64,000 nucleotides of DNA from a candidate division WOR-3 bacterium (lineage in GTDB: Bacteria; Hydrothermota; Tepidihabitantia; SM23-42; JAOAFX01), in NCBI GenBank assembly GCA_037444665.1, contig JBBILZ010000003.1, positions 18,073 through 82,072 of the forward strand. Reading direction: 5' to 3'. Shown in pieces: positions 19,714-60,984 of the stretch. Below the pieces are notes generated by a model. That model searched no databases. It saw only the letters and a program-made list of their open reading frames with translations, and had not been told where the DNA came from. A program made the translations under genes and the position numbers. How positions within the stretch are numbered: position 1 is the stretch's first letter; every line of letters begins with the position of its first letter.

Positions 19714-19822
19714 GAGCTCATCAAGAGAGGCTGAGGGACGGGCCCTGTGACGCCTCGGCAACCGGTCCTTATTTAAGGATGTCCTGGTGCCAATTCCCGC
19801 CCGAATAGGGAGAGATGGGTGT
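19714..19822 (+). ncRNA. SAM-I (S-box) riboswitch
   Basis: The sequence gCTCATCAAGAGAGGCTGAGGGACGGGCCCTGTGACGCCTCGGCAACC...GGTGCCAATTCCCGCC...GAGAGATGGGTG matches the S-box core (AUCaaGAGaGG.GAGGGA.GGCCC..UGA..CC.GGCAACC ... GGUGCcAAUUCC) and has P1 closure. Confidence 0.9.
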
Positions 19823-19838
19823 TAAACTCAAAATCAAA

Positions 19839-19866
19839 CCTTCCCAGATTCGGGGAGGTTTTTTGT
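19839..19866 (+). terminator. Riboswitch expression-platform intrinsic terminator
   Basis: ccttccc-agattc-ggggagg followed by ttttttgttt. Confidence 0.75.
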
Positions 19867-19981
19867 TTCCCACTCATCCTCCTGAAAAGATTAGAAGTTA
19901 AGAGGTTAAGAAAATCTGCAAAAAAATCGTAACTTCTCAACCTCATAACTTCATAACTTCATTCAATCAAAAGGGGGTATA

Positions 19982-21178
19982 ATGAAAAAAACTATTGATG
20001 AGATAAATGAAAAGATAAAAAAGGGTAAAGCAGTAGTCTTTACTGCTGAAGAGATTATTGAGGTTGCAAAAGAACAGGGGTTAAAAAACACAGCAAAAAA
20101 GGTTGATGTTGTTACAACCGGTACATTTGGTCCAATGTGTTCTTCTGGAGCATTTATCAATCTTGGGCATACCCGTCCAAGAATGAGAATTACCAGGGCA
20201 TGGCTCAATGATGTTGAGGTATTCTGTGGCATTGCCGCAGTTGACCTTTATATTGGTGCTACACAGATACCTGATAATGACCCGGCAAATAAAGAGCATC
20301 CTGGTAGATTCAGATATGGTGGTGGCCATTTGATTGAAGATCTGGTAGCAGGAAAAAAGATAAAGATAAAGGCACTCTCTTACGGCACTGATTGTTATCC
20401 TAAAAAAGAATTGACCGGTGAATTTACAATAAAGGATATCAATGATGCATTCCTGTTTAATCCGCGAAATTGCTACCAGAATTATAATGTGGCGGTCAAT
20501 CTTGGTAGAGAGAAAATTTATACTTATTTGGGTATCCTCAAACCGAATCTTGGCAATGCAAATTTCTGCTCTGCTGGACAATTGTCACCACTATTAAATG
20601 ACCCTGAGTATCTAACAATTGGCATTGGAACACGCATCTTCCTGGGCGGTGGTATTGGATACATTGCATGGCACGGCACACAGCACGACCCTTCTGTAGC
20701 AAGAAATAAAAATAGTGTGCCCAAAAGTGGTTCAGGAACCATTGCCGTGATTGGCGATTTAAAGACGATGAAACCCGAATGGCTCAGAGGAACATCAATC
20801 ATTGGTTATGGCGTAAGTTTGACCGTAGGCATTGGCATTCCGATTCCGATTCTTAATGAAGAAATCTTAAAATTTACCTGTGTAAAAGATAGCGATATAG
20901 TTGCGCCTGTTGTTGATTATTCATACGATTATCCGAATCTGACTGGTAGGGTCATTGCTGAAATAGATTATGCAACATTGAAATCCGGTAAGATACGCAT
21001 CGGAAATAAGACTGTACCAACATTTCCCATTTCCAGTTATCCAAAGGCGCAGAAAATAAGCAGGATTTTAAAGAATTGGCTCCAGACAGGTAAATTCCTG
21101 CTTACCGAGCCGGTTCAAAGACTGCCTGGTAAGGAATCAAGGATAAAATTCAGACCATTCCAGGGAAGGTATAAATAA
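19982..21178 (+). CDS. COG1900/DUF39 homocysteine biosynthesis protein (MA1821-like)
   Basis: N-terminus KTIDEINEKIKKGKAVVFTAEEIIEV...KVDVVTTGTFGPMCSSGAFINLGH is the characteristic DUF39 signature. The gene sits behind a SAM riboswitch. Confidence 0.8.
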   Translation: MKKTIDEINEKIKKGKAVVFTAEEIIEVAKEQGLKNTAKKVDVVTTGTFGPMCSSGAFINLGHTRPRMRITRAWLNDVEVFCGIAAVDLYIGATQIPDNDPANKEHPGRFRYGGGHLIEDLVAGKKIKIKALSYGTDCYPKKELTGEFTIKDINDAFLFNPRNCYQNYNVAVNLGREKIYTYLGILKPNLGNANFCSAGQLSPLLNDPEYLTIGIGTRIFLGGGIGYIAWHGTQHDPSVARNKNSVPKSGSGTIAVIGDLKTMKPEWLRGTSIIGYGVSLTVGIGIPIPILNEEILKFTCVKDSDIVAPVVDYSYDYPNLTGRVIAEIDYATLKSGKIRIGNKTVPTFPISSYPKAQKISRILKNWLQTGKFLLTEPVQRLPGKESRIKFRPFQGRYK

Positions 21179-25073: not shown

Positions 25074-25538
25074 TTAGAATAGGTTTTTTATAATTTCTGC
25101 AATCTTTTCAAGAAATTCTCTATCTTCGTCAGTAAATGGTGATAACATATGGGAATCAATATCAATCTCAGCCACGACTGTATCATCCTTGAATACCGGC
25201 ACAACAATCTCTGATTTTACAGTAGGACTGCAGGCAAGATAGTTTGTCTCTTTTGAGACATCCTGAACAACAAAGGTCTCTTTTTTTGCAACTGCCTGAC
25301 CACAGATGCCCCTGCCAAAAGGAATTTTGGTGTGCTCAGTTGGTGCACCTACAAATGGACCAAGATATAATTCCTTTGTTTTATTATCCGCAATGTAAAA
25401 TCCCACCCAGTTGTAGTATGGCACATTGGTTTTAAGGAGTGCACAGATTTTCAATAATTTATCTTCGTTCTTTATATTACTCTCTTCAATCTCTTTTATC
25501 TCTTTTATTAATCGCGCAAAAATCTTTTGTTTATCCAT
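25074..25538 (-). CDS. GAF-domain free methionine-(R)-sulfoxide reductase-like protein
   Basis: YNWVGFYIAD...LYLGPFVGAPTEHTKIPFGRGICGQAV...VVQDV...NYLACSPTVKSEIVVPV matches the fRMsr/YebR GAF family, including the Cys positions. Confidence 0.8.
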   Translation of the reverse strand: MDKQKIFARLIKEIKEIEESNIKNEDKLLKICALLKTNVPYYNWVGFYIADNKTKELYLGPFVGAPTEHTKIPFGRGICGQAVAKKETFVVQDVSKETNYLACSPTVKSEIVVPVFKDDTVVAEIDIDSHMLSPFTDEDREFLEKIAEIIKNLF

Positions 25539-27109
25539 TATGGCTTATATCTCAATGGGCATACCAGGCAACGCTTAGCCTCATTCTTTAAATCTTCAGC
25601 AGATGGAATCTCTTCCACGGGTCTGAAATCTTTAATTCGTTCCTGCGCATTACGGTGGAAGACCTTTAATCTTGGAATATTAACCATCTGCCAGTATTGT
25701 GGCTCTACTGGATAGATTGTGAATTTGAAATTAAACAGACTTCCCTTTAAGAACCTATCAATCTTTTTTGCAATCCTTATTCCATCACCCACTGCATGCG
25801 CCAGGGTCTGCGGACCCAGTGCTGCATCACCACCGGCAAATATTTTTGGATTACTCGTCCTTCCGTCCTTTGTGACGATACGGCACTGCTCATCAATCTT
25901 TATATAATCATTCAAAAAATCTGTATAAGGAACCTGACCTATTGCCGCAACAATCTTATCAACTTCTATTTCAAATTCTGAACCAGAAACAATCTCTACT
26001 TTACCTTTTCTTCCCTGAGGCGCACGGGTCTTTACCATCACAAGTTTTTTCCCTGCAATCTTTACTGGTGTGGTATATGGATAGACCTTTATTCCTTCTT
26101 CATCTGCTTCAGTCTTGTTTTCATCTTCTGCAGGCATATCCTCTATACCACGGCGATAATATATTGCAACCTCATTGCCACAGCGCAATAGACTCCTTGC
26201 TACATCAAATGCAGTATTACCGCCACCAATGACTGCAACTTTACCCAGCCTGATCTGCTCACCATTCTTTATCCGCTGTAAAATATCAAGACCAGAGAGC
26301 ACCTGCTCTTCACCTTCAATCCCGAGTCCTGCAGATTTGCCAGCACCCGAGGCAATGAAAATGGCATTATAATCAGTGATCAATTCTGCGAGATTGATAT
26401 CCTTACCAATCTCTACATTGGTCTTAATCTCAAATCCTGCCCTTTTTATCTGCTCAATCTCCTGTTCCACAATTGACCTTGGCAGACGAAATTCAGGAAT
26501 GTATGCAGATAAAACACCACCTAAAAATTTTTCTTTTTCATAGACCACGACCTGATAGCCGAGTTTACACAGTTCATACGCCGCAGTAAGTCCACAAGGA
26601 CCACCGCCAATGATTGCAACCTTTTCTTTTCTCTTCTCTTCAGCAACAACCGGTGGTTCGGTCTTTACCCCATGCTTCAGTGTGCGGATTGCTACAGGTT
26701 CATCAATACCCTTTCTGGTGCAGTTTATTTCACACGGTGCAGGGCATATCATACCCAGGATTTTAAAGAATGGAATAAAAGGATAATTTACTTTATTGGA
26801 TACAACTAAATTGATATAATACCAGGGTTTGACTTCTGCAGGACAATTTTTCTCGCAGGGTGGTGCAAAGTAGTTGACACCACGATATGCATCAAGAATA
26901 TTAAACAGATAGAATAGAATCCACGCAGCCAGAACAAACCAGAACCCAAAAGTCAATTTTATCCACAAGACCTTTGTCACAAGGATAGAGCCATAAAAGA
27001 CAATCATAAACCAGATACCGGTAATTATACGTCCTGAATAGATCTGACCACCACCAACAATAAAAATAGAAATGATTGATGCAATTAAATTCTTTTTATC
27101 TTGTGCCAT
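25538..27109 (-). CDS. GltD-like FAD/NAD(P)H oxidoreductase with Fe-S Cys motifs and an unusual N-terminal membrane (TM2-like) domain
   Basis: The N-terminus has 2-3 TM helices (IISIFIVGGGQIYSGR...). It is followed by CEKNCPAE and CPAPCEINC motifs, then the Rossmann motifs KVAIIGGGPCGLTAAYEL...VVVYEKEKFLGGVL and VAVIGGGNTAFDVA. Confidence 0.7.
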   Translation of the reverse strand: MAQDKKNLIASIISIFIVGGGQIYSGRIITGIWFMIVFYGSILVTKVLWIKLTFGFWFVLAAWILFYLFNILDAYRGVNYFAPPCEKNCPAEVKPWYYINLVVSNKVNYPFIPFFKILGMICPAPCEINCTRKGIDEPVAIRTLKHGVKTEPPVVAEEKRKEKVAIIGGGPCGLTAAYELCKLGYQVVVYEKEKFLGGVLSAYIPEFRLPRSIVEQEIEQIKRAGFEIKTNVEIGKDINLAELITDYNAIFIASGAGKSAGLGIEGEEQVLSGLDILQRIKNGEQIRLGKVAVIGGGNTAFDVARSLLRCGNEVAIYYRRGIEDMPAEDENKTEADEEGIKVYPYTTPVKIAGKKLVMVKTRAPQGRKGKVEIVSGSEFEIEVDKIVAAIGQVPYTDFLNDYIKIDEQCRIVTKDGRTSNPKIFAGGDAALGPQTLAHAVGDGIRIAKKIDRFLKGSLFNFKFTIYPVEPQYWQMVNIPRLKVFHRNAQERIKDFRPVEEIPSAEDLKNEAKRCLVCPLRYKP

Positions 27110-27890
27110 AACTTATCGCCTTTGTTGGACATTTTTTTACACAATCAAGGCATCTAATACAATCAATGTTATGTGGTGAATTTTGGATTGGCACATGCAT
27201 GGGGCAGACTGCCTGGCAGGAATCACAAGAAATACACTTTTCTTTATCTATTTTCATCTGAAACATACTGAATCTATTAAAGATTGAGTAGATTGCACCA
27301 ACCGGACAGAATGCACGGCAGAAGAATCGCTTAATAAAAATAGAAAAATTAATTATAATAATGAGTATTGCCATCTTTATCCAGAAGAGCCAGCCGACAA
27401 GTGCCTTTATATCACCGGTCTTATCTGCCAGCACAAGGGGAATTCCTGCCTCTATAAAACCTGCAGGACAGAGTTTACAGAACCAGGGCTCGCCTGATAT
27501 CCATGCGATGATACCTGCAATAACAATAAGCACTCCATATTTTATATAAGAGAAGAATTTTGGCATGCGCATCTTAAAGGTCTTTAATTTATAAATCAAA
27601 TCCTGGAACAGTCCGAATGGGCAGAGCCAGCCGCATGCCATCCTTCCTACTACAGTTCCAATGGCACCAAAGAATCCAGCAATATAAAATGGAATGAGAT
27701 GGAGATTAAAAAAATGTTGCAATGCGCCAATAGGACAGGAAAAGAGAGAGAGTGGACATCCCCAGCAATTGAGAATCGGAACACATCCTTGTTTTAAAGG
27801 ACCCTGATAAATTCCGCCCTGCCAGATTGCAGGATAATTTCCTAAGGTGATTGCTGAGGCAATGAACTGGACAATGCGTTTTAACTTCAT
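27096..27890 (-). CDS. NapH/MauN-like membrane polyferredoxin (4Fe-4S binding)
   Basis: Membrane CxxC-P motifs (GCPLSLFSCPIG, WLCPFG, CKLCPAG, FCRAFCPVG) plus C-terminal CISCDSCQAVCP and CIRCLDCVKKCP. The track starts at GTG 27917. ATG 27890 forms an ATGA overlap with the upstream small ORF and is the start preferred here. Confidence 0.7.
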   Translation of the reverse strand: MKLKRIVQFIASAITLGNYPAIWQGGIYQGPLKQGCVPILNCWGCPLSLFSCPIGALQHFFNLHLIPFYIAGFFGAIGTVVGRMACGWLCPFGLFQDLIYKLKTFKMRMPKFFSYIKYGVLIVIAGIIAWISGEPWFCKLCPAGFIEAGIPLVLADKTGDIKALVGWLFWIKMAILIIIINFSIFIKRFFCRAFCPVGAIYSIFNRFSMFQMKIDKEKCISCDSCQAVCPMHVPIQNSPHNIDCIRCLDCVKKCPTKAISYGTR

Positions 27891-28027
27891 TGTTGTAATC
27901 CCATGCAGGAAAGGCACATTACCGAACCTACAGTCTCGGTCTCAGTAAAATCACCTACCTTTCCCCCATAAATAATGCCGGCAATAAAAATGACCAGAAG
28001 AATCACAACCAAAATCATCCGCTTCAT
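27887..28027 (-). CDS. Small (46 aa) membrane protein with a C-terminal CxxC; not in the ORF track
   Basis: GGAGGT RBS, then ATG 28027..28025. Translation is MKRMILVVILLVIFIAGIIYGGKVGDFTETETVGSVMCLSCMGLQQ*. The stop overlaps the ATG of the polyferredoxin gene (ATGA). Confidence 0.5.
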   Translation of the reverse strand: MKRMILVVILLVIFIAGIIYGGKVGDFTETETVGSVMCLSCMGLQQ

Positions 28028-28117: not shown

Positions 28118-29698
28118 TTAAAATATACTCGTCAGCACTGCCTTTACCCCACGAAAAGGCTCTTCAAATCTGCATACACCACCCGAGCATACAAGACCAC
28201 CCTTTTCACCACCAATCCTTAATCTCAGATTGTGCCTGGTTGTCAGGTCAAGGCTCAATTCTAACATGGGCCAGAATGTCTCTTCACCAAGTTTTGGGAT
28301 CAACCATTCAGGCACCCTATCCCTTTTTTCACCGCGTAGGGTTATCACAAATCTCTCTGGTTTACCAACAGATACGCTCAATGCACGGTCATTATATTTA
28401 CTTGTATCACTGGTGACTATGGTCTGTTCAATGCCTGCCTCTACAAAAAAGATTCCAAAGTCATATTGTAGTTCAAGATATGGCTTTGTTTCGGTCTTTT
28501 TCTGAACCGGCAATTCAATTCCCTGTTTAATAATATGGTCAACACCAAAGGTTATCTCTGATACTTCTGTAGGATGGGTTATTGCCTTTATCCCCTGTTC
28601 TAATACACCATCCATATTCTCCATCAGATAAAAGAGCTCTTTAAATTTATTCAGCTCAGGGTCATGTGTGGAGACCTTGTTGTTATCAATTTCCAGGGAA
28701 ATAAAATCCAATGGTGAGGCAACTACTGAAATGCCATAACCAATCTCATCAATCCCGCGATTTACTGAAATACCGGATTTAATTGGTGTAGGTGGTTCAT
28801 TATAACGATAACCAGCACCACCAAATCCCATATCTTTGTAATCAACATACTGGACAGAAACACCATAACCACTCAGACTCAAACTTGAAGTATAAAGATA
28901 ACCGTCGCCCCTTAACCTTCCTCCCACCACAGGTATTGTTCCCCAGTGCCTGCCATATTCAAAATAATTTTCCCATGGTCCAATCTTCAGATTCATACTG
29001 CCACCGAAGAGTTCGGTAAATGCCTTTGGTGTCAAATCAGTAATTTTGTTTATACGCACATACCGTGCACCAATATTTGTATTCAATCCAAAGTCATTTT
29101 TAAAATTCAAAAGTTTTGTCTCAAGATTAGCACCGCGGAGCTGGTCTGTAGTATCATTCTTAATCGTGTATTTCAACTCTTCAAAGAAGATATTGCGAGG
29201 TCTGCCAGTGACTAAACTAATCTGGCTTTTAAAGAGGTTTATATCTGCCTTAAGTCCGTATAATGAATTATCATTATTGAAGTCTTCATCAAGGAATTGA
29301 TTGAGGCACAGACCACGTCCAAATGTAGCATAGTATCTACCATAAAGAATACTTATTGGGTCTTTTTTATACTGGGCAGAATAGTCAATATAATACAATT
29401 TGTTGAGGGTCCGCAATGATGGGTCCCAGAAAAAGAATACGCCACGCAGGGTAATATCTTTATAATCAAGCGAAAGTTTTAATTTTTCTGTAATATGGTC
29501 TTTAAAATTTGTTGTATCCAGGCGGGAATCAACAAATAGCCAGTATTCAGCGCGGTTTGAACCGGTGATACGTAGTTCCTGGCCATTTATAAAAATAGGC
29601 AGAAAAAAGAGCAGAAGAATAAATCCAGAGTATCTGTTAGAAACTGAATTTTTTTTGGGGCTTGGAGTTTGGAAATTGGAATTTATTCTCTTATTCAT
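28118..29698 (-). CDS. Putative outer-membrane beta-barrel protein
   Basis: The start is moved to ATG 29698 (MNKRINSNF...), 2 nt after the upstream stop. Signal peptide ...GFILLLFFLPIFINGQ, alternating amphipathic strands throughout, and a C-terminal ...AVLTSIF (terminal Phe). Confidence 0.5.
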   Translation of the reverse strand: MNKRINSNFQTPSPKKNSVSNRYSGFILLLFFLPIFINGQELRITGSNRAEYWLFVDSRLDTTNFKDHITEKLKLSLDYKDITLRGVFFFWDPSLRTLNKLYYIDYSAQYKKDPISILYGRYYATFGRGLCLNQFLDEDFNNDNSLYGLKADINLFKSQISLVTGRPRNIFFEELKYTIKNDTTDQLRGANLETKLLNFKNDFGLNTNIGARYVRINKITDLTPKAFTELFGGSMNLKIGPWENYFEYGRHWGTIPVVGGRLRGDGYLYTSSLSLSGYGVSVQYVDYKDMGFGGAGYRYNEPPTPIKSGISVNRGIDEIGYGISVVASPLDFISLEIDNNKVSTHDPELNKFKELFYLMENMDGVLEQGIKAITHPTEVSEITFGVDHIIKQGIELPVQKKTETKPYLELQYDFGIFFVEAGIEQTIVTSDTSKYNDRALSVSVGKPERFVITLRGEKRDRVPEWLIPKLGEETFWPMLELSLDLTTRHNLRLRIGGEKGGLVCSGGVCRFEEPFRGVKAVLTSIF

Positions 29699-30260
29699 GG
29701 CACTTTTCCTTACAATCTCCTTTACAATCTTTACAGGTAACACATCTAACCTTTTTAACAATTATCTCTTCATCGCCAGGCTTATATCCCTGATGCACAA
29801 AGACAATTTTCTTACTCTGGTTAATAATGTAGCTCGTGGGCATTGCCTGAACATTATATAGTTCACGCAAAATATTGTCCGGGTCAAGAACAATAACATA
29901 TTTCCATTTGTGGCTCAATGCAAATGGTTTTACTTTTGGCACTGCCCTTGCCTTGTCCTGACTGATTGCCAGCATCTGCAGTCCAAGTGAGTCAAATTCA
30001 TCGTAGTACGCTTTCAAGGCATCAAGTTCTTTAATACACATCTTGCACCACAATGCCCAGAAACTCATAAAGACTGGTCCTTTTTTCAATAAAGAATCAA
30101 GACAGACAGTATTTCCATCAACATCCTGGAGTATAAAATCAGGGGCTGTAGGCAATTCTTTTTCCTGGGCATAACTTAAATTAAACAGAAAAAGGGCCGA
30201 TATAATACTAATCCATATTACTTTCGTATTTCGTATTTCGTATTTCGTATTTCGTTTCAT
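29691..30260 (-). CDS. TlpA/ResA-like periplasmic thiol:disulfide oxidoreductase with a Cys-rich tail
   Basis: Signal peptide, then the thioredoxin-fold motif VFMSFWALWCKMCIKELD. The tail is VRCVTCKDCKGDCKEKCHE. The N-terminal KRNTKYEIRNTK is encoded by (cgaaata)x4. The ATG overlaps the upstream TGA (ATGA). Confidence 0.8.
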   Translation of the reverse strand: MKRNTKYEIRNTKVIWISIISALFLFNLSYAQEKELPTAPDFILQDVDGNTVCLDSLLKKGPVFMSFWALWCKMCIKELDALKAYYDEFDSLGLQMLAISQDKARAVPKVKPFALSHKWKYVIVLDPDNILRELYNVQAMPTSYIINQSKKIVFVHQGYKPGDEEIIVKKVRCVTCKDCKGDCKEKCHE

Positions 30261-30973
30261 TTTGTATCCTCAAATTTTGTGCTTATTGTCTGCATCACCT
30301 CTTTTGTGTTTATGTTTTGAACAAGGACGGTTGCCCGTAATTTAGATGCCGGGATGCTATGGTTAAACTCAATATGTTGGATCAAACTATCGGGGTATTG
30401 TAGAACTACAGGAAATTCATTCAATGCCCGACATACACGATAGAATGTAGTATAGGAACCGGGCAAACTATCCTCGGTTACAGCAATGAATGCCTTTATT
30501 TCGCCTGGTGGTATCGTATCCGCAGCAACGATCTTTAGATTAAATCTTGCCTGCGAACCCTGGGTAAATGCACTATCAATATATAGATTGAAATAAGGTG
30601 TCTTTGTTCGCGCAAGGAGATAATGTTCTCTATAGACACTATCATAATTCGGCGGACTCTGCTCAAACACTGCATCGGTTCCATCAAAGACAATAAAAGG
30701 AACATCTAAACCCGTATTATAAAAATCCTCTCGTTCCTGTGCCTCAGGTATCGTATATTGTCCGTTTATATGATAACAAATAACCACGAGCGTATCTCCT
30801 GTTCTATTTGCCACACTATCAATAAGCGCCCGCTCCGCGAGCGCACAAAATCCTCAGCCATCCTCAGTAAACATCTCTGCCAGAACAATTCTACTTGTTG
30901 GTTCAGGAAAATTTAGTTTTGGTGCATCAGAACAGAAGATAAAAAATAAGGGAAGTATTATTAATTTTTTCAT
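30257..30973 (-). CDS. Candidate selenoprotein: thioredoxin-fold-like (Omp28-related-like) lipoprotein with UxxC, TGA codon 40 at 30856..30854
   Basis: Hand translation from ATG 30973 gives MKKLIILPLFFIFCSDAPKLNFPEPTSRIVLAEMFTEDG-TGA-GFCALAERALIDS-V(=track start 30814)ANRTGD... The frame is the same throughout. It is a paralog of 56858..57892 and 59968..60984 (shared (V/L)AEM/EEF...U..C and (I/V)TEDS blocks). Confidence 0.65.
30826..30844 (-). promoter_or_regulatory. SECIS-like hairpin 9 nt downstream of TGA 30856..30854
   Basis: On the minus strand, gcgctcgc-gga-gcgggcgc forms an 8-bp stem (one G.U pair) with a G-first loop. Confidence 0.55.
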
Positions 30974-31387
30974 AATGTCAATTATATCTAAAAGAAGGTT
31001 TAAGTCAATATTAAAAAGCACTGAGCCCTCTCCACTTTTCTGACTTATTGTATGTGTTTGTCGAAGATGAAACTGTAGTTGCCCGATTTATCGGGCATGG
31101 ATAAATTTTCTAATCTATAAAAAAGATGCCTCATAAATGAGACAACTACTAAAATATTAAATGGAGAGTAAAAGTGGAGCGGAGCAATAAATTATTGACT
31201 TCATAACGAGAAGCCAATTAAGGGCATATAAAATAAAAAAAGCTCAAGAAGGCTAAAGAGGGCTAAAAAGGGCGATGTTATAAAGGGTAGAAAGGGACGA
31301 AGAAGGGTGAAGAGGGGGAAAGAAGGGGAAGAAAGTAATAGGAGCAAAGGAGATATGTGAAGGAGATGAACCCGATAAATTTGATAC

Positions 31388-45890: not shown

Positions 45891-46937
45891 CTAACCATTG
45901 TGATAATATCTTCTCTTTATCCACAATGCGACATTGACCAGCATTATTAGAACTGGAACTTCAAGAAGGGGTCCAATAACCGTCGCAAATGCCTGACCAG
46001 AACTAATGCCGAAGATTGCAATAGCAACTGCTATTGCCAATTCAAAATCATTACTTGAGGCTGTGAAAGAAACTGCGGTTGCCTGCCCATAATTAGCACC
46101 CAGTTTGTAGACTATAAAGAATGTCACGAACCACATAATCACAAAATACAATACAAGAGGTAGCGCAATCCTTAAAACATGTAAGGGCAACTGGATAATA
46201 TATTCCCCCTTAAGCGAAAACATAACGATAATTGTGAATAACAAGGCGATGAAAGTAACGGGACTTATTTTTGGAATAAACTTGTTTTCATACCACATCC
46301 TGCCCTTTGATTTTATCAACGAAAACCTGGTGATTATACCACCTATAAAGGGTATTCCTAAGTAGATAAAAACCGTCTTTGCTGCTTCCAACATAGAAAC
46401 GCTTACATTCAGGCCCTTGACAAGTCCTAACCAGTTAAGGAGCGTAGGGATAAAAATATAGATGTAAACAGCATAAAAAAGAACCTGAAAGACAGCATTA
46501 AAAGCAACCAGTCCTACGGCGAGTTCTCTGTCTCCTTGTGCGAGCTCATTCCATACAATTACCATGGCAATACATCGTGCAAGTCCGACCAAAATTACGC
46601 CGATCATATATTCGGGGTAACTACGTAAGAAAATAATTGCCAGCACGAACATAAGAACCGGACCAATAATCCAGTTTTGAAGTAGAGAAATGAAAAGTAA
46701 CTTCTTACTCTTGAAGACCTTATCCATCTCCTCATATTTGACCTTCGCCAATGGTGGATACATCATCAATATTAGACCAATCGCAATTGGAATAGAGGTT
46801 GCTCCAATTTGTAGACTGGTGATAAATTTTGTTACAATCGGTAAAGTATAACCAATCCCAACCCCTGCTGCCATTGCGAGAAATATCCACAGGGTCAAGA
46901 ATCTGTCCAGTAAAGAGAGTTTAATCTTTTGTTCCAT
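45891..46937 (-). CDS. acr3: ACR3-family arsenite efflux transporter
   Basis: [24 protein letters not shown]..., 10 TM helices, and the conserved ...RCIAMV... Cys region. It lies in an ars context. Confidence 0.85.
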
Positions 46938-46952
46938 TTAACCTCCTAATCT

Positions 46953-48119
46953 CTAAAATAGAAATCCATAAATCCAACCCACGATTGAAGAAAGGATTAT
47001 CACCAAAAATATATAAGTGATGGTCTTTTTTACACCCATAATACTGCTGATGACGAGCATACTGGGTAGACTCACTGCAGGACCAGCAAGCAATAATGCT
47101 AATGCCGGTCCTTTTCCCATACCACTGCCTAAAAGCCCCTGTAAAATGGGCACTTCTGTAAGGGTTGCAAAATACATAAATGCACCAGAGACCGCAGCAA
47201 GGAGGTTTGCCCAGAATGAATTGCCACCAACAAGACTGGCAATAAAACTTGAAGGAATAATGCCACGGTCTGTATTCGGTCTGCCCAGCAAAAATCCAGC
47301 AACCATGACTCCAGCAAACAATAATGGCAAAATCTGACGGGCAAATGTCCAGGTGGAAAAGACCCAGTCCTTTCTTTCATCCGCATTGAACCACTTAAAT
47401 ATTATGACAAACATTATTACCAAAAAGATTAGAACAAGATACCAGTGGATATTATAGACCGCATTCCAGAATCCAACTGGTTCTTTTGGCTTTGCCCAGG
47501 CAGCAAAGATTAATATTAAAATCAGAGAAAGGAAGTATAAAAGATTCTGTCCCAGTGTGCGGCCATTTGCAATGCCTTCTTCTGTTTCAAAAGAATCTTC
47601 AGATTCTACTTTTTTGTCCTTGAATATCAAGGACATCAATAGACCGATGATGACTGAAAAGACAACTGCTCCGAGTGCACGGGCAATGCCTAATTCTGCA
47701 CCTAAAATACGTGCAGTGAGAATTATTGCCAGGACATTTATTGCCGGACCAGAATATAAAAATGCAGTTGCCGGACCAATGCCTGCACCGCGTATGTATA
47801 TACCTGCAAACATTGGTAAGACTGTGCAGGAGCAGACCGCAAGGATTGTTCCGGAGACCGAGGCAATACCGTATGCAAGAACTTTGTTTGCTTTTGCACC
47901 AAAATATTTTATCACTGCCTCTTTTGAGATAAAATTACTTATTGCACCAGCAATAAAGAATGCTGGAATAAGACAGAAGAGCACATGTTCTCTCGCATAC
48001 TCCTGAATCATAAATACTGCCTCAAGGATTGCGGACTGGATGCGCAAACCATCAAAAGGGACAAAATAGAGCACCAAAAATACTGCGATAAAAATTATAA
48101 GTCTGGTTCGTTCTTTCAA
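46953..48119 (-). CDS. ArsP-like permease (DUF318/UPF0718)
   Basis: Polytopic membrane protein with the ...VSGTILAVCSCTVLPMFAG... Cys-x-Cys motif typical of this permease family. Adjacent to acr3 and arsR. Confidence 0.7.
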   Translation of the reverse strand: MKERTRLIIFIAVFLVLYFVPFDGLRIQSAILEAVFMIQEYAREHVLFCLIPAFFIAGAISNFISKEAVIKYFGAKANKVLAYGIASVSGTILAVCSCTVLPMFAGIYIRGAGIGPATAFLYSGPAINVLAIILTARILGAELGIARALGAVVFSVIIGLLMSLIFKDKKVESEDSFETEEGIANGRTLGQNLLYFLSLILILIFAAWAKPKEPVGFWNAVYNIHWYLVLIFLVIMFVIIFKWFNADERKDWVFSTWTFARQILPLLFAGVMVAGFLLGRPNTDRGIIPSSFIASLVGGNSFWANLLAAVSGAFMYFATLTEVPILQGLLGSGMGKGPALALLLAGPAVSLPSMLVISSIMGVKKTITYIFLVIILSSIVGWIYGFLF

Positions 48120-49141: not shown

Positions 49142-50461
49142 ATGAGTGAACAGGCTAAAATTTACTGGCAGAATATTCTTGGATATATTAAGGACAAAAT
49201 CCATCCCCAGTCGTTCGCGACCTGGTTTCATCAGAGCAAGGGGATTGAAATTAAGGATGATGTCCTGCTTGTTGAGATGCCAACCAATTTTCATATTGAT
49301 TGGATTACTATGCACTATTCAAAAATACTTGAAGAGGCGGCAATTTCTGTGAATGGCAACAATCTGAGATTATCTTTTAAAGCAGCAAACCAGGAAACAA
49401 ATCGTCCCGCGCTGAAAAAGAAGAGATTTATCCTTTCCCATGATCTTACAAAACTTCAGGAACGATATACTTTTGAAAATTTTGTGGTAGGAAAGAATAA
49501 CGAGCTTGCGCATGCTGCGGCACTGGCTGTTGCCGAAGCACCCGGAGAGGCTTATAATCCACTCTTCTTATATGGTGGGGTGGGTCTGGGAAAGACCCAT
49601 TTGATGCAAGCAATCGGCAATTTTATTCACAAACAACATAAAAATTTAAATGTTTACTATACCCAGGCTGAAAATATAATGAATGAACTTATTGATGCTA
49701 TTCAGAAAAAGGACCAGTTGTCTTTTAAAAAGAAATATCGGAATAAAGACATTCTGCTCCTTGATGATATTCAATTTATTTATGGTAAAGAACGTCTTCA
49801 AGATGAAATATTCCATACCTTTGATTATCTATATACCCAGGGAAAGCAGATTGTTTTAACTTCAGACCGTCCACCAAAAGAACTTTCTACGCTGGAAGAG
49901 CGTCTGACTTCAAGATTTCAGGGAGGATTGGTTGTAGACCTTCAAGCTCCTGACCTTGAAACAAGAATAGCCATTTTACAAAAAAAGGCAGAGATTGAAA
50001 ATGTTAAACTTCCTGGTAATGTTGCTTATTATATTGCATCAAGGGTTAAATCTAATATTCGTGAATTAGAAGGATGTTTGATAAGGCTCCTGGCTATCTC
50101 CTCTCTATCAGGGCAAGAAATGAATGAAGCCCTGGCTGAAGAAGCACTAAAAGACCTTTTAGGCAACGGATACAAAGTTGATAAAGAAAAAATAATAAAG
50201 GTTGTCTGTAATGAATTTGGTTTTTCAGAGAATGACCTTAAAGGAAACAGAAGAACCCAGAGGCTTGCCCTTGGTAGACAGGTAGCAATGTATTTGATGC
50301 GTAATTTTCTCAATCTGTCTCTGGCAGAAATTGGTCAAATTTTTGGTGGAAAAGACCACAGCACAGTAATACATGCGATTGAAAAAATAAATCATCTTAA
50401 AGAAACGAACATAGATTTTTCTCGTATTTTAGAGAGGATAAATACAAGGATAAATGGTTGA
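49142..50461 (+). CDS. dnaA: Chromosomal replication initiator DnaA
   Basis: Walker A GGVGLGKTHL, LLLDDIQF, the sensor/box VII motifs, and the C-terminal DNA-binding ...GGKDHSTVIHA. Confidence 0.97.
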   Translation: MSEQAKIYWQNILGYIKDKIHPQSFATWFHQSKGIEIKDDVLLVEMPTNFHIDWITMHYSKILEEAAISVNGNNLRLSFKAANQETNRPALKKKRFILSHDLTKLQERYTFENFVVGKNNELAHAAALAVAEAPGEAYNPLFLYGGVGLGKTHLMQAIGNFIHKQHKNLNVYYTQAENIMNELIDAIQKKDQLSFKKKYRNKDILLLDDIQFIYGKERLQDEIFHTFDYLYTQGKQIVLTSDRPPKELSTLEERLTSRFQGGLVVDLQAPDLETRIAILQKKAEIENVKLPGNVAYYIASRVKSNIRELEGCLIRLLAISSLSGQEMNEALAEEALKDLLGNGYKVDKEKIIKVVCNEFGFSENDLKGNRRTQRLALGRQVAMYLMRNFLNLSLAEIGQIFGGKDHSTVIHAIEKINHLKETNIDFSRILERINTRING

Positions 50462-50575
50462 TAAAATGTGGATTTTTTTCATTAAAAAATTTTTTTATAA
50501 TTTATCAAACTTTATGAACATTTTTATCAACAAGGTGGTTCTCGTTTTCTTTCATTTTCTCAAGAGTTTTTTTAT

Positions 50576-50592
50576 TAATCCACATATCCACA
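50576..50592 (+). promoter_or_regulatory. Two overlapping near-consensus DnaA boxes in the dnaA-dnaN spacer
   Basis: TAATCCACA and ATATCCACA, each with one mismatch to TTATCCACA. There is also tgtggattt at 50467-75, followed by a very AT-rich stretch up to the dnaN RBS. Confidence 0.55.
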
Positions 50593-50656
50593 TCATAGAC
50601 AACAATAACATAAAATTAATTATTTTAAATATTTTGTTGTTCTATAAGGAGGCGTA

Positions 50657-51751
50657 ATGGAATTTAAAATCAACAAAATTAATTTTGAAAAAGTGCTGAA
50701 TAGCATAGTAAAATTGATTCCTCCCAAGAGTACACATACTGTTCTTCAAAATATTATACTTGAAGCAAAGAATAATAATCTAAACATAGAAGGAACTGAC
50801 CTTGATATATTTATAAAAAAATCACTGGCTTGTGATATTAAAAAAGAAGGAAAGGCATTATTGCCAGGAAAAAAACTTCTTGAGATTGCACGAGAGGCAA
50901 ATGTTGATGAAATTTCATTCAAATTAAAAGAGTTAAATTTGCAAATCAATGCAGGTAATGCTCAATTTAATATACCTGCCCTTGATTATCAAGAGTTTCC
51001 AGAGATTCCTTCTTTTCCTTCCAAGAAATGGCTGGCATTGAGCATAAATGAAATAAACGAGATGGCAAATGCAACAATCTTTATGGTTTCCAAAGAACTG
51101 AGCAGGCGTGCAATGAATGGGGTTTTATTGCAGATAAAAGAGGATTGGTTGAATATGGTAACAACTGATGGAGCTCGTCTGGCACTCTTTAAAAAAGAAC
51201 AGAAAGGAGAAGCAGGAGAACTGATACTACCACCAAAGATATTTGACCTGCTGGATATAAACCAACCTGAAGAGCAAATAGAGTTCTACCTTGATGAAAG
51301 AATTGTCGGTCTTAAATTTGGCAGCACCACAATCATTGCCCGTCTTATTGAAGGGCCATATCCAAATTATGAAGCAGTTATACCAAAGGTCTTTCCAGGG
51401 ACCTGCACAGTTGAAAAGAGTCTGCTTGAGGGTGCTTTAAAAAGAGTTTCTCTCGTTTCTAGTCCAACATTGAAGAGCGTTAAATTTGATTTTTCAAAAG
51501 AAAACTTAATGTTATCTGCATCTTCGCCTGATAGTGGTGAGGCAAAAGAGCCTGTGGTCTGTAATTATGAAGGAGAAAAAATGGCGGTCTGGTATAATGC
51601 GGCATACCTCTTAGAGATTATGAGACATATAAGTTCTGATGATATTGTGTTCCAGTTAACATCTCCATCATCGGCATCATTGATAAAACAAAAAGAAGAT
51701 GATAAATTAATATATTTGTTAATGCCTTTAAGGATTGATTCCTATGAATAA
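50657..51751 (+). CDS. dnaN: DNA polymerase III beta sliding clamp
   Basis: Position after dnaA, 364 aa. Typical motifs ...LQNILLEA..., ATDGHRLA-like TTDGARLA, and ...LMPLRI. Confidence 0.93.
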   Translation: MEFKINKINFEKVLNSIVKLIPPKSTHTVLQNIILEAKNNNLNIEGTDLDIFIKKSLACDIKKEGKALLPGKKLLEIAREANVDEISFKLKELNLQINAGNAQFNIPALDYQEFPEIPSFPSKKWLALSINEINEMANATIFMVSKELSRRAMNGVLLQIKEDWLNMVTTDGARLALFKKEQKGEAGELILPPKIFDLLDINQPEEQIEFYLDERIVGLKFGSTTIIARLIEGPYPNYEAVIPKVFPGTCTVEKSLLEGALKRVSLVSSPTLKSVKFDFSKENLMLSASSPDSGEAKEPVVCNYEGEKMAVWYNAAYLLEIMRHISSDDIVFQLTSPSSASLIKQKEDDKLIYLLMPLRIDSYE

Positions 51752-52328: not shown

Positions 52329-54819
52329 ATATGTGCGAGGGGTTAAATAGATTTTTTGGCAGAAACTCATATCTTGGTTTCATGATAAAAATAAGTTTCT
52401 GCGAGTATGGCGATTGCCATATTATGGTCTTTGAAAATTTATTAGAATTGGCGGAAGGAACGTGGGTTCAAGTTACTAAGAGCGCATGTGAGGATGCCTT
52501 GGCATTCAGAGGCGATGAAGGGCGTGGTAGGCTGCGATAAGCGTCGGTGAGGAGCGAACATCCTTTGACCCGGCGATGCCCGAATGGGAAAACCCATCCT
52601 GTTGAAAAACAGGATATCCTGCTCGCAAGGACAGGAGGCTAACCAGGGGAAGTGAAACATCTCAGTACCCTGAGGAAGAGATATTCCGAAAGTAGCGGCG
52701 AGCGAAATCGGAACAGCCCAAACCGATCTGCATTTTAAAGCGGACAGGCGTTGTGCAGGCGGTGTAGCGAGGTCCAGCTGAACCTGATCTGTCCTGAAGG
52801 TTGTGAAGTTACAAAACCTTGTAATAGCCGAATCTCACAGGAAAGTAGAGCCATAGATGGTGATAGCCCAGTAGGCGAAATTACAAAGGTCTTCACTGGC
52901 TGGATTCTCAAGTAGCACGGGATAGGTTATCCTGTGTGAATCTGCCCAAACCACTGGGTAAGGCTAAATACTTCTGAATGACCGATAGTGCACCAGTACC
53001 GTAAGGGAAAGGTGAAAAGAACCCCTGGCGGGGAGTGAAATAGAACCTGAAACCATGCGCTTACAATCAGCAGGAGTTTAACTCCTACCTGAGCAATCGG
53101 GTGGGAAATGTTGAATGACTGCGTGCCTTTTGCATAATGAGCCGGCGAGTTATCCTAACCTGCAAGCTTAATTCTGGCATGAAAGTGTCGGAAGCAAGCG
53201 TAGGGAAACCAAGTCCAAATAGGGCGTATTAGTAGGTTGGGGTATTACCCGAAACCCGGTGAGCTACCCATGGTCAGGATGAAATTCCGGTGACACGGAA
53301 TGGAGGTCCGAACCGGTGACTGTTGAAATAGTCTCGGATGAACTGTGGGTCGGAGTGAAAGGCTAACCAAACCGGGTGATAGCTGGTTCTCCTCGAAATG
53401 CCTCTAGGGGCAGTCTTGGATGTTCAATAATAGTGGTAGAGCACTGAATAGAAGAGAACCCTTCGGGGTTCAAATCTAATCAAACTCCGAATGCTATTAT
53501 TTATAAGTCCAGGAAAGAGGCGGTGGGGGCTAAGCTTCATCGCCGAAAGGGGAATAACCCAGACCACCGGCTAAGGTCCCTAAGAGTTGGTTAAGTGGGA
53601 AAGGATGTGAGATGACTTAAACATCTGGGATGTTGGCTTAGAGGCAGCCATCATTTAAAGAGTGCGTAACAGCTCACCAGCCGAGTTATCTTGCGCCGAA
53701 AATTTATCGGGGCTCAAACCAACCACCGAAGCTGTGGCTTCCTGACCATTATGGTCAGGAGGGGTAGAGGAGCGTTCCATTGTAGGTTGAAGTTCTGTTG
53801 CGAAACAGAATCGACGAAATGGAAGTGATTATGCCGGCACGAGTAGCGATAATCCAGGTGAAAAACCTGGACACCGTAAGCCCAAGGGTTCCTGGGCAAG
53901 GTTAATCCGCCCAGGGTTAGTCGGATCCTTAGCCGAGGCCGAAAGGCGTAGGTGATGGGAAAGCCGTCAACATTCGGCTACCATCTGTAGTTTCGTTATA
54001 CCTATGGGGTGACGCTGATGGTAGAGGCGGTTCCTGTGTTGGAATACAGGATCCAAATACTTCATGGGAATTTCCTGGCAAATCCGGAAGTTCTTAACCA
54101 TGGAGTATGATGGGGAGGCCCAAAAGGCCATAAACCCGTCTCGAGATTCAGCCGAGAAAAACCTCTATGGAAGAAATTACGGGTGTCCGTACCGGAAACG
54201 AACACACGTGGGCGAGGTGAATATCCACAGGTGCTCGGGTGAACCCTTGTTAAGGAACTCGGCAATCTAACCCCGTAACTTCGGGATAAGGGGTTCCCGT
54301 TATCTGCTATGATGAATAGTGAATAACGGGACGCAGTGAAAGGGCTCTCGCGACTGTTTAACAAAAACACAGGTCTCTGCTAAGCCGTAAGGCAAAGTAT
54401 AGGGACTGACACCTGCCCGGTGCCAGAAGGTTAAAGAAGGAAGTTATTTTGGCGAAAGTCAGGAGAAGCTTCCGACTGAAGCCCTGGTAAACGGCGGCCG
54501 TAACTCTAACGGTCCTAAGGTAGCGAAATTCCTTGGCGGGTAAGTTCCGTCCTGCACGAATGGTGTAACGACGAGAGCGCTGTCTCAACAAGGAGCCCGG
54601 CGAAACTGTAGTGGCGGTGAAGATGCCGCCTACCCACGGTAGGACAAAAAGACCCCGTGAACCTTTACTGCAGCTTGCTATTGAATCTTTGCGGAGCATG
54701 TGTAGCATAGGTGGGAGGCTTTGAAGTTCCGACGCTAGTCGGAATGGAGCCGTCAGTGAAATACCACCCTTGTTCTGTCGGAGGTTCTAATTCTACCTTT
54801 GCAGGGTGGAAGACAGTGG

Positions 54820-55808
<989 letters not shown>

Positions 55809-55972: not shown

Positions 55973-56008
<36 letters not shown>

Positions 56009-56034
56009 GGCCCGAGAGTTCACATCGACGGCCC

Positions 56035-56075
<41 letters not shown>

Positions 56076-56857: not shown

Positions 56858-57892
56858 ATGAAATATTTAAAAATTATTGGGCTTTCTATATTAATATTAT
56901 CTTTGTTTAAATTTTCAAGTGGAGCAGAACGTGTTGTTGTTGCTGAAATGGTAACTGACGAGGGCTGAACCGCCTGTGGTGCAGCCAGTGGTACACTGGC
57001 ACAGATCGTTCTCAACCATCCAGGCAGGGTTGCAGCAGTTGATGTCCATTATCCAGCAGGTGATTCATTCTTTTTGCAGGAAGGATATGATCGTATCCAT
57101 TATTATCCACCACCATATTATGGAATGTATATTACACCATGGCTCTGGTATGATGGGAATCAACACGGTGAAATGGACTATACACAATGGGAATCAAAGA
57201 TTATTACAAGAATGAATCAACCAGCACCAGTAACCATATATCTTGATGGTGAATATTCACCGAGCAATAATTCAGGAACCATTTATGCTACATTCAAAAA
57301 CGATTCAAGCGCAACAATCACTGGCAGGGTAATAATTGTTATTACTGAAGATAGTCTATTCTATCCAGCACCCAATGGCACTATTTGGCATTCTAATGTG
57401 CCCCGTGATTATCTTCCTGATAATAATGGTACAAATGTATCAATTCCTGCGGGTGATTCAATAACAATCACTATGCCCTTTACAACCCATCCTAACTGGA
57501 ATAAAACACACTGTAAAATAAAGACCTGGGTCCAGAATGATATAATGCAATCAGATTCAACAAAAGAGGTCTGGCAGGGTGCATTGGTAAATTTGCTGGA
57601 ACTTGGTATCAATGAAGAATATCAGGAGAATACTAAGAGAATGAATATTCAGGTATACCCTAATCCTGTCAGACGCAATGGTTCTGTTCAATTTAATTTT
57701 GGTATCGGAACAAGCTATGAGATTTCAATTTTTGACTGCACAGGAAGGCAGATGGTCAAAATTAAAGGAAGTGCAGATATAATAAATTGGAATCTGAGAG
57801 ATGGCCATGGAATCTCAGTTAACCCTGGTGTATATTTTTACAAAATTCAATCCGAGAAATTTTTCACAAGTGGTAAGATTGTAATTGAATAA
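56858..57892 (+). CDS. Candidate selenoprotein: secreted thioredoxin-fold-like (Omp28-related-like) protein with UxxC and a T9SS C-terminal domain; TGA codon 37 at 56966..56968
   Basis: AAAGGAGG RBS, ATG 56858. Codon-by-codon translation gives MKYLKIIGLSILILSLFKFSSGAERVVVAEMVTDEG-TGA-TACGAASGTLAQIVLNHPGRVAAVDVHYPAGDSFF-L(=track start 57074)QEGYDR... There is no other stop. It ends ...PGVYFYKIQSEKFFTSGKIVIE. Confidence 0.7.
56984..57000 (+). promoter_or_regulatory. SECIS-like hairpin 15 nt downstream of TGA 56966..56968
   Basis: gccagtg-gta-cactggc forms a perfect 7-bp stem with a G-first loop. Confidence 0.6.
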
Positions 57893-59967: not shown

Positions 59968-60984
59968 ATGAGGTTAAGCATTTTTAGGTTTATGCTTTTG
60001 CTGGGCGTACTTATTTTGAGCATATCCAGTGCAGCACAGCGCGTGGTGCTATGTGAGGAATTTTATCAGGAGACCTGACCGAGCTGTCCTGCAGCCAGCA
60101 GTGTGCTGGACAATATTGTTATCCAATATTCAACCAGGATTGCACCAATAGAGATGCATTTGAGTTCAGGTTATCCACTCTATTCTGCAGAAGCTTATGC
60201 CAGAATGCAGTATTATCCAAGTTCAAACTGGTATACACCGAATCTCATTCTTGATGGAACGCCGCGCGGCAGTGGTTATACAAGCTGGCAATCCTATATA
60301 GTGGCAAGGATGAATCAGGCTTCACCAATGCGACTCTTAATGTGGGGAACTTATGGTTCTGGTTCAGGAACCATTAATGCGCGTTTTTATAATGATTCAA
60401 CTGCATCGGTAACTGCTACAGTCTATTTTGTTATTACTGAAGATAGTTGTTATTATGCTGCACCCAATGGTGACCAGTGGCACAATCATGTAGCAAGAGA
60501 CTATGTGCCTAATCAGATTGGCCAGCAGGTGACGATTCCTTCAGGAGATTCTGCAACAGTAGCTCAGTATTTTACAATCCAGTATGGATGGAATGTAAAT
60601 AGGTGTAATATTATCACCTGGATACAGAATAGTTCTACAAGAGAGGTATATCAAGCAGGAAAGATCAAAGTAACCGACCTTACCGCGGTGGAAGAGAACG
60701 AGCAGGATAATCTGGTGAAAAAAGAGATATTATCACTGCCTAACCCCTGTGTAAATGGAACAAAATTCCAGTTCAATATTGGTGCAGGAACACAATGGAA
60801 AATTATAATATTTGATGTTCTGGGTAGACCGATACAGCAGATTGATGGAATCGGTAATGCTCAAAATCAAATTGTAGAATGGAATCTCAAGGATAATAAA
60901 GGTAATCGTGTAAAGTCCGGTATCTATTTCTATCGGTTTATCAGTGCGGAATTGAATAGCACAGGAAAGATTGTTGTAAGATAA
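59968..60984 (+). CDS. Candidate selenoprotein: paralog of 56858..57892 with UxxC and a T9SS C-terminal domain; TGA codon 37 at 60076..60078
   Basis: AAAGGAGG RBS, ATG 59968. Translation gives MRLSIFRFMLLLGVLILSISSAAQRVVLCEEFYQET-TGA-PSCPAASS-V(=track start 60103)LDNIVIQY... It ends ...SGIYFYRFISAELNSTGKIVVR. Confidence 0.7.
60095..60109 (+). promoter_or_regulatory. SECIS-like hairpin 16 nt downstream of TGA 60076..60078
   Basis: ccagca-gtg-tgctgg. It sits at the position homologous to the 56984..57000 hairpin and differs by two compensatory pair changes. Confidence 0.6.

Follow-up and report, generated by a model that had tools for sequence, protein, structure and literature searches.

An in-frame UGA that most likely encodes selenocysteine in an Omp28/HBP35-like envelope protein heading a redox operon of a WOR-3 bacterium

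How can a single gene hold the same codon, TGA, both within its reading frame and at its end? This question is raised by gene A, which lies in a 64-kb stretch of DNA from a candidate division WOR-3 bacterium (contig JBBILZ010000003.1; the stretch is called the window hereafter, and the coordinates given below count along its full length). The frame of gene A opens with the ATG at 30973 on the minus strand and runs through 238 codons with a single in-frame TGA at 30856-30854, and its translation, MKKLIILPLFFIFCSDAPKLNFPEPTSRIVLAEMFTEDG-TGA-GFCALAERALIDS, continues in frame with the listed open reading frame (ORF) 30257..30814. Its terminator codon is another TGA (30259-30257), residing within an ATGA shared with the next ATG (30260), which opens a gene for a CxxC protein. 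A preliminary description, made from the sequence alone, had proposed this frame across the TGA, the ATGA junction, a hairpin starting 9 nt past the internal TGA, and the reading of one codon in two ways inside one gene. The coordinates and translation of the frame check out and so does the junction, the hairpin was located at 30844-30826, and TGA is indeed a normal stop in the window as well, terminating 10 of the 43 long ORFs, gene A among them. The features concerned, with selenocysteine abbreviated as Sec (U in motifs) and the selenocysteine insertion sequence as SECIS, are as follows:

30257..30973, minus strand: gene A, a 238-residue protein of thioredoxin fold plus beta-sandwich (Omp28/HBP35-like), with predicted Sec at residue 40 (UGFC)
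30854..30856, minus strand: in-frame TGA, codon 40, most likely read as Sec; the same codon in orthologs, Cys in paralogs
30826..30844, minus strand: putative bacterial SECIS hairpin, 8-bp stem, GGA loop, UGA-to-loop distance 17 nt

From the comparisons reported here, the internal TGA of gene A most likely encodes Sec, and we assign a probability of roughly 0.85 to the whole explanation, namely that a SECIS-decoded Sec is carried by an Omp28/HBP35-type envelope protein which heads a translationally coupled redox operon.

To place the TGA in its evolutionary context, a genome scan using one genome per species was evaluated, which returned 71 loci (cited below by L numbers); 21 of them hold orthologs of gene A, distributed in candidate division WOR-3 and Candidatus Stahlbacteria and being 31-91% identical. 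Of the 21 orthologous loci, 20 share TGA at exactly this codon. The 39 codons before it are conserved at the protein level across the 21 loci, comprising the signal peptide, an invariant Cys, S-[DE]-A-P, FPEPT and R-x-VL-x-E-x-FT, and the orthologs keep VLAE.FT before the TGA and FC.LAE.AL past it; these upstream codons specify the signal peptide together with beta-strand 1 of the thioredoxin fold. In four WOR-3 paralogs (L021-L024, 32-35% identical) a Cys is aligned to the TGA (ARCVYC, ARCTYC), and Cys also occupies the Sec position in many Omp28-like CxxC proteins of other phyla; relatives with CxxC in the same context occur in Bacteroidota, Ignavibacteriota, KSB1 and other phyla, and separate UxxC forms were found in Bacteroidales and in Cloacimonadota, four of the latter within one locus. 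Cys-containing orthologs, for which the preliminary description had advised a search, turned up only in part, i.e. paralogs with Cys exist but orthologs with Cys were not found, the Cys forms being paralogs or distant homologs and none of them a Cys-containing ortholog in the context of gene A and its two downstream genes B and C. Nearly all public relatives of gene A are 144-200 residues long and begin just past the TGA, the pattern to be expected where gene callers halt at a Sec codon, and all database orthologs are deposited in shortened form as ‘hypothetical protein’. No conserved start codon exists in the downstream part: the callers pick different residues, and the window encodes Ala where others have Met.

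The hairpin, GCGCTCGC-GGA-GCGGGCGC, has a folding energy of -14.4 kcal/mol (z = -2.38 versus dinucleotide shuffles). Across an alignment of 22 sequences its apical GC-GGA-GC is invariant and the outer six pairs carry compensatory substitutions, e.g. GCGCTCGC/GCGGGCGC, ATGCTCGC/GCGGGCAT, TGGGACGC/GCGTTCCC and GAGGTCGC/GCGATCTC. Changes on both sides were observed at six of the eight pairs, the observed covariation score was reached by none of 500 shuffles, and 94.4% of the cells are paired in this helix versus 55.6% or less once the 3′ arm is shifted by 1-3 columns. A 2026 review gives a consensus model for bacterial SECIS elements in which the loop measures 3-9 nt and the stem 4-16 bp, a G is found in the first two loop positions, UGA and loop are separated by 16-37 nt, and the minimum free energy is -7.5 kcal/mol or lower (PMC13188914); the gene A hairpin agrees with four of four constraints of this model, having a 3-nt loop, an 8-bp stem, G at the first loop position, a 17-nt distance and the energy given above. 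At the corresponding site the Cys paralogs also code for A-E, but form only weak 4-bp stems or no hairpin. Taken as a sequence comparison, these data support that the hairpin behaves as a bacterial SECIS. A simple terminator scan flagged the same hairpin, which TTATT follows; a role as terminator or attenuator was ruled out, because the coding sequence that contains the hairpin is conserved and the hairpin covaries with the TGA.

Genes for Sec synthesis and insertion were identified in the lineage. Locus L023 (9962-17885) of the WOR-3 chromosome CP070664.1 holds selD, selA and selB (647 residues) directly downstream of a Cys paralog, in the order CxxC Omp28-like paralog, selD, two 2-hydroxyacyl-CoA-dehydratase-like genes, selA and selB, and the same chromosome carries the TGA-bearing ortholog L019; with selD, selA and selB in the chromosome of L019, the WOR-3 lineage therefore probably decodes Sec. 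The selD of CP070664.1 has an in-frame UGA of its own (N-terminus KCAG-U-ASK) and, read from its sequence, is itself a selenoprotein gene. A run of ~100 N lies past selB in L023 (18173-18272). Separately, L045 holds a NifS-SelD fusion gene 3.6 kb from a cluster of Omp28-like, TlpA and DUF6029 genes, with unrelated genes between; selenium metabolism may be linked to Omp28-like envelope thioredoxins, or the proximity may be chance. A selD/Omp28-like linkage was set aside, its two cases (L023 and L045) in 71 loci being only mildly above chance by a rough estimate.

Gene A is not the sole gene of this kind in the window, where two further UxxC proteins with a sorting domain of the type IX secretion system (T9SS) are encoded:

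56858..57892, plus strand: paralog 1, Omp28-related UxxC protein (UTAC) with T9SS sorting domain, TGA at 56966-56968
59968..60984, plus strand: paralog 2, Omp28-related UxxC protein (UPSC) with T9SS sorting domain, TGA at 60076-60078

The two sites (56966 and 60076, both plus strand) were confirmed, making gene A the third UxxC paralog as had been proposed, and they share the context R-VV-x-E-x-[FV]-[TY] with gene A. A full-length alignment of the three window paralogs with the Cys forms is possible, and it shows that the N-termini of both other paralogs and of the Cys relatives are homologous to what gene A encodes upstream of 30814. In paralogs 1 and 2 the hairpin stems have 6-7 bp, the loops read GUA and GUG, and the distance from the UGA is 22 nt.

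To which family the gene A protein belongs was approached by profile and fold comparison. A gene-A profile search retrieved PF11551 proteins, and hhalign aligned the gene-A subfamily with Omp28-related (PF11551) proteins of WOR-3 at 94.4% probability (E = 9e-8, 174 columns). A PDB sequence search with genes A and C gave no matches. The AlphaFold model of a full-length ortholog, P0018 (52% identical, with Gly at the Sec site), shows two domains at a predicted local distance difference test score (pLDDT) of 86.5, namely a thioredoxin fold, in which helix 1 begins with the motif, and after it a sandwich of seven strands. Its top PDB match is HBP35 of P. gingivalis (5y1a; template modelling (TM) score 0.68 over 243 columns), and it also matches the Omp28 domain 2r2c (TMt 0.68). 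HBP35 is located at the cell surface, and both of its Cys are required for its activity as a thioredoxin (PMC2907840). HBP35 (5y1a) and the Omp28 lipoprotein family (2r2c; PF11551; NF033782) thus resemble gene A in the thioredoxin plus Ig-like sandwich and the envelope or surface location, but HBP35 differs from it in using Cys, in binding hemin and in being a cargo of the T9SS, with a sorting domain at its C-terminus, at an identity of ~11%; no hemin-related genes were seen in the gene A operon.

The closest catalogued type is NF045500, ‘Omp28-related selenoprotein’, which appears as ‘Hypothetical protein GOS_C’ with UxxC in a selenoprotein table (PMC13188914). Common to it and gene A are the thioredoxin-like N-terminus, UxxC within the context hydrophobic-hydrophobic-x-E-x-F-T..U..C, the Omp28-type beta-sandwich, the envelope location and the existence of Cys-form homologs. 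The NF045500 type also covers both other window paralogs (41.1 and 66.6 bits, both under the cut-off of 200) and the Sec forms of Bacteroidales and Cloacimonadota. Unlike this type, gene A lacks a T9SS sorting domain and has a lipoprotein-like signal peptide and an operon with ResA-like and DUF6029 genes; by sequence, it is related to the NF045500 equivalog and stands outside its membership. The signal peptide ends in an invariant Cys (FCSDAP in gene A), with Cys-S-[DEK]-[AS]-P in 25 of 25 WOR-3 sequences, and the gene A product is probably a lipoprotein as judged from this predicted site.

Several results weigh against this explanation. At the codon itself, one ortholog, L012 (JAUWLY010000090.1, 3803-3805), has GGA (Gly) instead of TGA, being the sole ortholog without it; its contig has a coverage of ~6x and the full SECIS-type hairpin is still kept, and GGA there reflects a sequencing error or else a Sec that was lost very recently or is dispensable at this site. 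The same metagenome-assembled genome contains a second copy with TGA (L016). As to the machinery, no sel genes were found in the 64-kb window by Pfam scans of 45 ORFs, and no tRNA-Sec was found by ARAGORN/Rfam in the window or in 25 or 3 loci, respectively, a null result that is uninformative because only ~20 kb per genome were covered. The check on Sec machinery that the preliminary description had called for has hence a mixed outcome, with selD, selA and selB present in an ortholog-bearing WOR-3 chromosome but neither these genes nor tRNA-Sec in the window. As to the protein, gene A scores far below the NF045500 cut-off (24.8 bits versus 200) and that of the Omp28 lipoprotein family NF033782 (19.4 bits versus 150), has no direct match to Pfam Omp28 (PF11551), and the modelled fold is that of P0018, not of the window protein. 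Directly before the invariant Cys the sequences have F, V, I, L, R or S instead of the usual G, A or S, which makes lipidation less certain; the lipoprotein claim of the preliminary description has the invariant Cys after the signal peptide in its favour and the non-canonical lipobox against it.

Were the internal TGA a true stop, gene A would be a pseudogene, or else a 39-residue signal-peptide fragment followed by a 185-residue protein from the GTG at 30814. Public callers, which annotate the downstream part only (144-200 residues), and the terminator scan, which flagged the hairpin with its TTATT, would be in line with such a stop; it is nevertheless highly improbable, given that the 39 upstream codons including the signal peptide and first beta-strand are conserved as protein in 21 loci, that no downstream start codon is conserved, that the paralogs align Cys with the TGA, and that the hairpin covaries inside conserved coding sequence. 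A different amino acid at this codon is scarcely credible either, whether UGA were reassigned or read through as Gly (genetic code 25), or decoded as Trp or Cys by near-cognate tRNAs. TGA ends 10 of the 43 long window ORFs, gene A included, which rules out a genome-wide reassignment; the TGA occupies the catalytic first position of CxxC, where homologs have Cys, a covarying SECIS-type hairpin accompanies the TGA, and selD, selA and selB exist in the lineage. What does favour the reassignment is the Gly codon (GGA) at the exact site in L012, against which stand the ~6x coverage of that contig and the retention of its hairpin. Sec at codon 40 of gene A remains the reading that these data favour.

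The genomic context of gene A was then considered, comprising six downstream genes on the same strand and a promoter-like element:

29691..30260, minus strand: gene B, 189-residue membrane-anchored ResA/TlpA-like thiol-disulfide oxidoreductase with WALWCKMC
28118..29698, minus strand: gene C, 526-residue DUF6029 outer-membrane beta-barrel with a CxGGxC pair and a terminal Phe
27887..28027, minus strand: gene D, 46-residue protein, single hydrophobic helix, CLSC at the C-terminus
27096..27890, minus strand: gene E, NapH/MauN-like membrane polyferredoxin
25538..27109, minus strand: gene F, GltD-like NAD(P)H flavoprotein with an iron-sulfur (Fe-S) domain and an N-terminal hydrophobic region
25074..25538, minus strand: gene G, homolog of the GAF-domain free methionine-R-sulfoxide reductase (fRMsr)
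30981..31008, minus strand: promoter-like TTGACT-16 nt-TATAAT, 11/12 consensus matches, the best in the region

The trio A-B-C had been described as a coupled operon; this coupling holds, but the unit is larger, being composed of seven tightly packed genes A-G. The junctions are ATGA for A/B, an 8-nt overlap for B/C, ATGA for D/E, a 14-nt overlap for E/F and 1 nt (TAATG) for F/G, and the C/D gap is 90 nt in the window and ~12 nt in L015. As for the previously stated spacing of 2 nt between B and C, the genes in fact overlap by 8 nt, and 2 nt is the gap between the ATG (29698-29696) of gene C and the TAA (29693-29691) of gene B. The order A-B-C is kept in 17 of 17 orthologous loci of WOR-3 and Stahlbacteria that reach far enough, as the synteny check proposed earlier had anticipated for a functional trio; D-E are kept in 11 of 11 loci reaching further, and F and G in subsets. 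Gene D is 51-98% identical in all loci extending far enough, and gene G matches the PDB entries 3ksg (1e-30) and 3mmh (2e-28). Two NCBIfam families additionally matched gene F, partially and below threshold: ‘putative selenate reductase subunit YgfK’ at 230 bits (cut-off 835), and at 138 bits (cut-off 530) ‘diclust_near_Sec’, a name that implies proximity to selenoprotein genes. Outside WOR-3, an Omp28-like CxxC gene (often two) clusters with TlpA-like and DUF6029 genes in seven loci from Ignavibacteria, KSB1 and unclassified bacteria, and in the Cloacimonadota locus L029 a DUF6029 gene lies ~5 kb from the Sec forms. The synteny and these clusters in other phyla lend support to the idea that the trio is a functional module.

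The -10 hexamer of the promoter-like element ends 7 nt before the ATG at 30973, and the arrangement recurs in orthologs: 16 of the 17 loci shown have TTGAC(T/A), a spacer of 16-18 nt and a -10 located 6-7 nt from the ATG, the -10 being TATAAT in 15 and TAGAAT in L015. L012 is without this arrangement, its upstream region differing and containing a Shine-Dalgarno-like AGAGGGG, whereas the gene A orthologs with the conserved promoter have no Shine-Dalgarno sequence. Because the promoter abuts the ATG, a leaderless or near-leaderless mRNA is expected, and the sequence suggests that the gene A mRNA is leaderless.

Gene B matches the Pfam families PF00578 (80.4 bits, cut-off 26; 1e-22) and PF08534 (62.2 bits) and ResA structures at E = 7e-19, with B. 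subtilis ResA among its best PDB sequence matches. With ResA, TlpA and CcmG it shares the AhpC-TSA/Redoxin fold, WCxxC and an N-terminal membrane anchor; unlike these, it falls under the cut-off of the ResA subfamily NF002854 (86.7 versus 170) and carries the CKGDCKEKCHE tail peculiar to its clade. Genes for cytochrome c maturation were not found near gene B, and no CcdA/DsbD was seen in the operon. WALWCKMC is kept among orthologs with the variants WALWCDMC (L014) and WAMWCKMC (L015). The tail, VRCVTCKDCKGDCKEKCHE (29691-29750), consists of repeated CKG[DEN]-type units and occurs in the closest clade only (L001-L005 and L007): L007 has a longer version (CKGDCKGNCKGECTGKCKGKCHE), L004 has lost part of it, with Tyr standing in for Cys, and more distant orthologs end in acidic tails. 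Of the TlpA-like protein with Cys-rich tail noted earlier, both elements are thus present, but the tail is clade-specific and no core feature. The starts of both downstream genes are embedded in coding sequence, namely that the Shine-Dalgarno sequence of gene B (GAGGAGG) lies inside the conserved C-terminal F-E-E codons of gene A, and the start of gene C falls within the last codons of the gene B tail. One more element lies at the start of gene B:

30222..30255, minus strand: perfect heptanucleotide tandem repeat AATACGA, 4.9 copies, at codons 3-14 of gene B

This repeat encodes the charged n-region of the gene B signal anchor, and repeats occupy the same site in relatives (~3 copies in L001, AAATTCG x4 in L002, x1 in L003 and AAATTCA x3 in L005). 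A change by one copy would shift the frame of gene B and therefore affect gene C through the coupling, and the heptamer repeat is, from its sequence, a possible phase-variation switch.

Gene C was confirmed as an outer-membrane barrel, as described beforehand, by its match to Pfam DUF6029 (PF19494; 75.9 bits, cut-off 27), a family carried by 120 of the 120 homologs listed, and by an AlphaFold model (pLDDT 83.7) displaying a large all-beta barrel. The fold search yielded only generic similarities (TM ≤ 0.52) to ushers, TonB-dependent transporters and MtrB (rank 40), and pointed to no particular family. DUF6029 has been tied by HHpred to Wzi-like barrels near polysaccharide export genes (PMC9603273); this similarity was not reproduced, no specific Wzi match being among the top 50 of our fold search. 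Two cysteines, C504 and C509 (CSGGVC), are invariant in 49 sequences. DUF6029 barrels have in common the C-terminal motif around them (residues 496-526 in gene C), G-x-[VI]-C-x-G-G-[VI]-C-[RYK]-x-[EQ]-P-x-F-x-G, whose part G-x-[VI]-C-x-G-G-[VI]-C recurs in the majority of DUF6029 genes from other phyla. Comparison of the motif in L025, L029, L041, L045, L047, L048, L067, L069 and L070 found both Cys always present, with variable residues between them (CRNGVC in L029 of Cloacimonadota). From the strand order of the model, C504 and C509 should be located at an outward turn before the last strand.

How would these parts work together? Sec decoding, the thioredoxin fold, the operon structure and the conservation of the module are supported by sequence comparison among genomes, and the steps below are proposed on this basis. 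A consensus promoter of the sigma-70 type abutting the ATG would drive the operon, and the overlapping start and stop codons would couple its genes. UGA-40 would be decoded by SelB and Sec-tRNA via the 8-bp GC-rich in-gene hairpin 9 nt downstream, and the second TGA of gene A would terminate because no such hairpin is located there. Sec would replace the first, nucleophilic Cys of the CxxC redox motif in a protein that is predicted to be secreted and probably lipid-anchored in the envelope. Gene B, presumably periplasmic on an inner-membrane anchor, could keep the selenenylsulfide of A reduced, and together with barrel C, A and B could form an oxidoreductase system for thiols and selenols at the outer membrane, for which D-E-F might supply reducing power from NAD(P)H; gene G would suit a theme of oxidative-damage repair. 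Candidate substrates include oxidized envelope proteins, the Cys pair of the barrel, peroxides, and, by analogy to HBP35, metal or heme handling.

A farther-reaching version of this scheme is that A, B and the barrel CxGGxC form a heme-free thiol/selenol relay, which moves reducing equivalents across the outer membrane to a surface selenoprotein, is fed in WOR-3 from cytoplasmic NAD(P)H by D-E-F, and is independent of DsbD/CcdA; we consider this a long shot. By analogy, MtrCAB conduits likewise have an outer-membrane barrel encoded with a periplasmic redox protein and a lipoprotein partner, but unlike in MtrCAB no hemes are present here, thiol/selenol pairs would be the putative redox centres, and the TM score of the barrel is low (0.40). 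If the relay were true, it would explain how T9SS-displayed thioredoxins of the HBP35/Omp28 type stay reduced outside the cell. A more modest role can be set against it, in which gene A is a real selenoprotein but A and B only fold or maintain the barrel by making or isomerizing its CxGGxC disulfide, or service a transport channel (e.g. a Wzi-like porin), with no relay to an external substrate. ResA/TlpA-type proteins (ResA, CcmG) usually serve particular client proteins, and such dedication would fit this role, as would the invariance of C504/C509 in 49 sequences and the presence of the motif in most DUF6029 genes of other phyla. The published link of DUF6029 to Wzi-like barrels near polysaccharide export genes points the same way (PMC9603273), yet polysaccharide export genes are absent from the operon, and the fold search returned only large barrels of a generic kind, none in its top 50 being a specific match to Wzi. 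Furthermore, a Sec enzyme, an Fe-S/flavin module and an fRMsr seem excessive for one structural disulfide, and a service role confined to the barrel appears unlikely, though it merits attention beside the broader oxidoreductase system proposed above.

The rest of the window contains several other features. Its rRNA genes are unlinked, with 23S-5S on the plus strand (52466-56742) and 16S on the minus strand (61114-62680), ~4.4 kb apart; between them lie both T9SS-tailed selenoprotein paralogs and two other genes, and paralog 1 begins 116 nt past the 5S gene. Within 54841-55805, a group I intron (Rfam RF00028, 90.8 bits) interrupts the 23S rRNA gene and is followed by a LAGLIDADG homing-endonuclease ORF (55167-55805). 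The dnaA and dnaN genes (49142-51751) adjoin the rRNA genes, and from their location the window probably spans the replication origin region; adjacent to them are an ACR3-type (SBF) transporter and an ArsP-type permease (45891-48119). Within 19715-21178, an S-adenosylmethionine (SAM) riboswitch (RF00162) is located upstream of a homocysteine-biosynthesis sulfur-incorporation gene (PF01837).

Sec-containing Omp28-related proteins are already catalogued, and gene A is not a new kind of selenoprotein; a literature search found no work on Omp28 as a selenoprotein and none relevant on selenocysteine in WOR-3. What is new is a divergent, lipoprotein-type subfamily that falls under the curated cut-off and is mis-annotated everywhere, a compact and well-supported SECIS together with probable Sec use in WOR-3 and Stahlbacteria, and a conserved operon uniting an HBP35-like thioredoxin, a ResA-like reductase, DUF6029 and an Fe-S/flavin module. 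With public orthologs lacking the signal peptide and active site, the subfamily merits re-annotation as selenoprotein, and WOR-3 and Stahlbacteria are to be counted among the users of Sec, with three predicted envelope selenoproteins within this one window. The compact covarying SECIS and the promoter abutting the ATG may be handy in engineering and in modelling the SECIS elements of phyla that are poorly sampled. The clustering across phyla provides a first concrete functional context, i.e. envelope thiol redox, for the uncharacterized DUF6029, and it raises the question of the electron source for thioredoxin-fold proteins at the surface like HBP35, for which the Fe-S/flavin genes of WOR-3 suggest a candidate supply.

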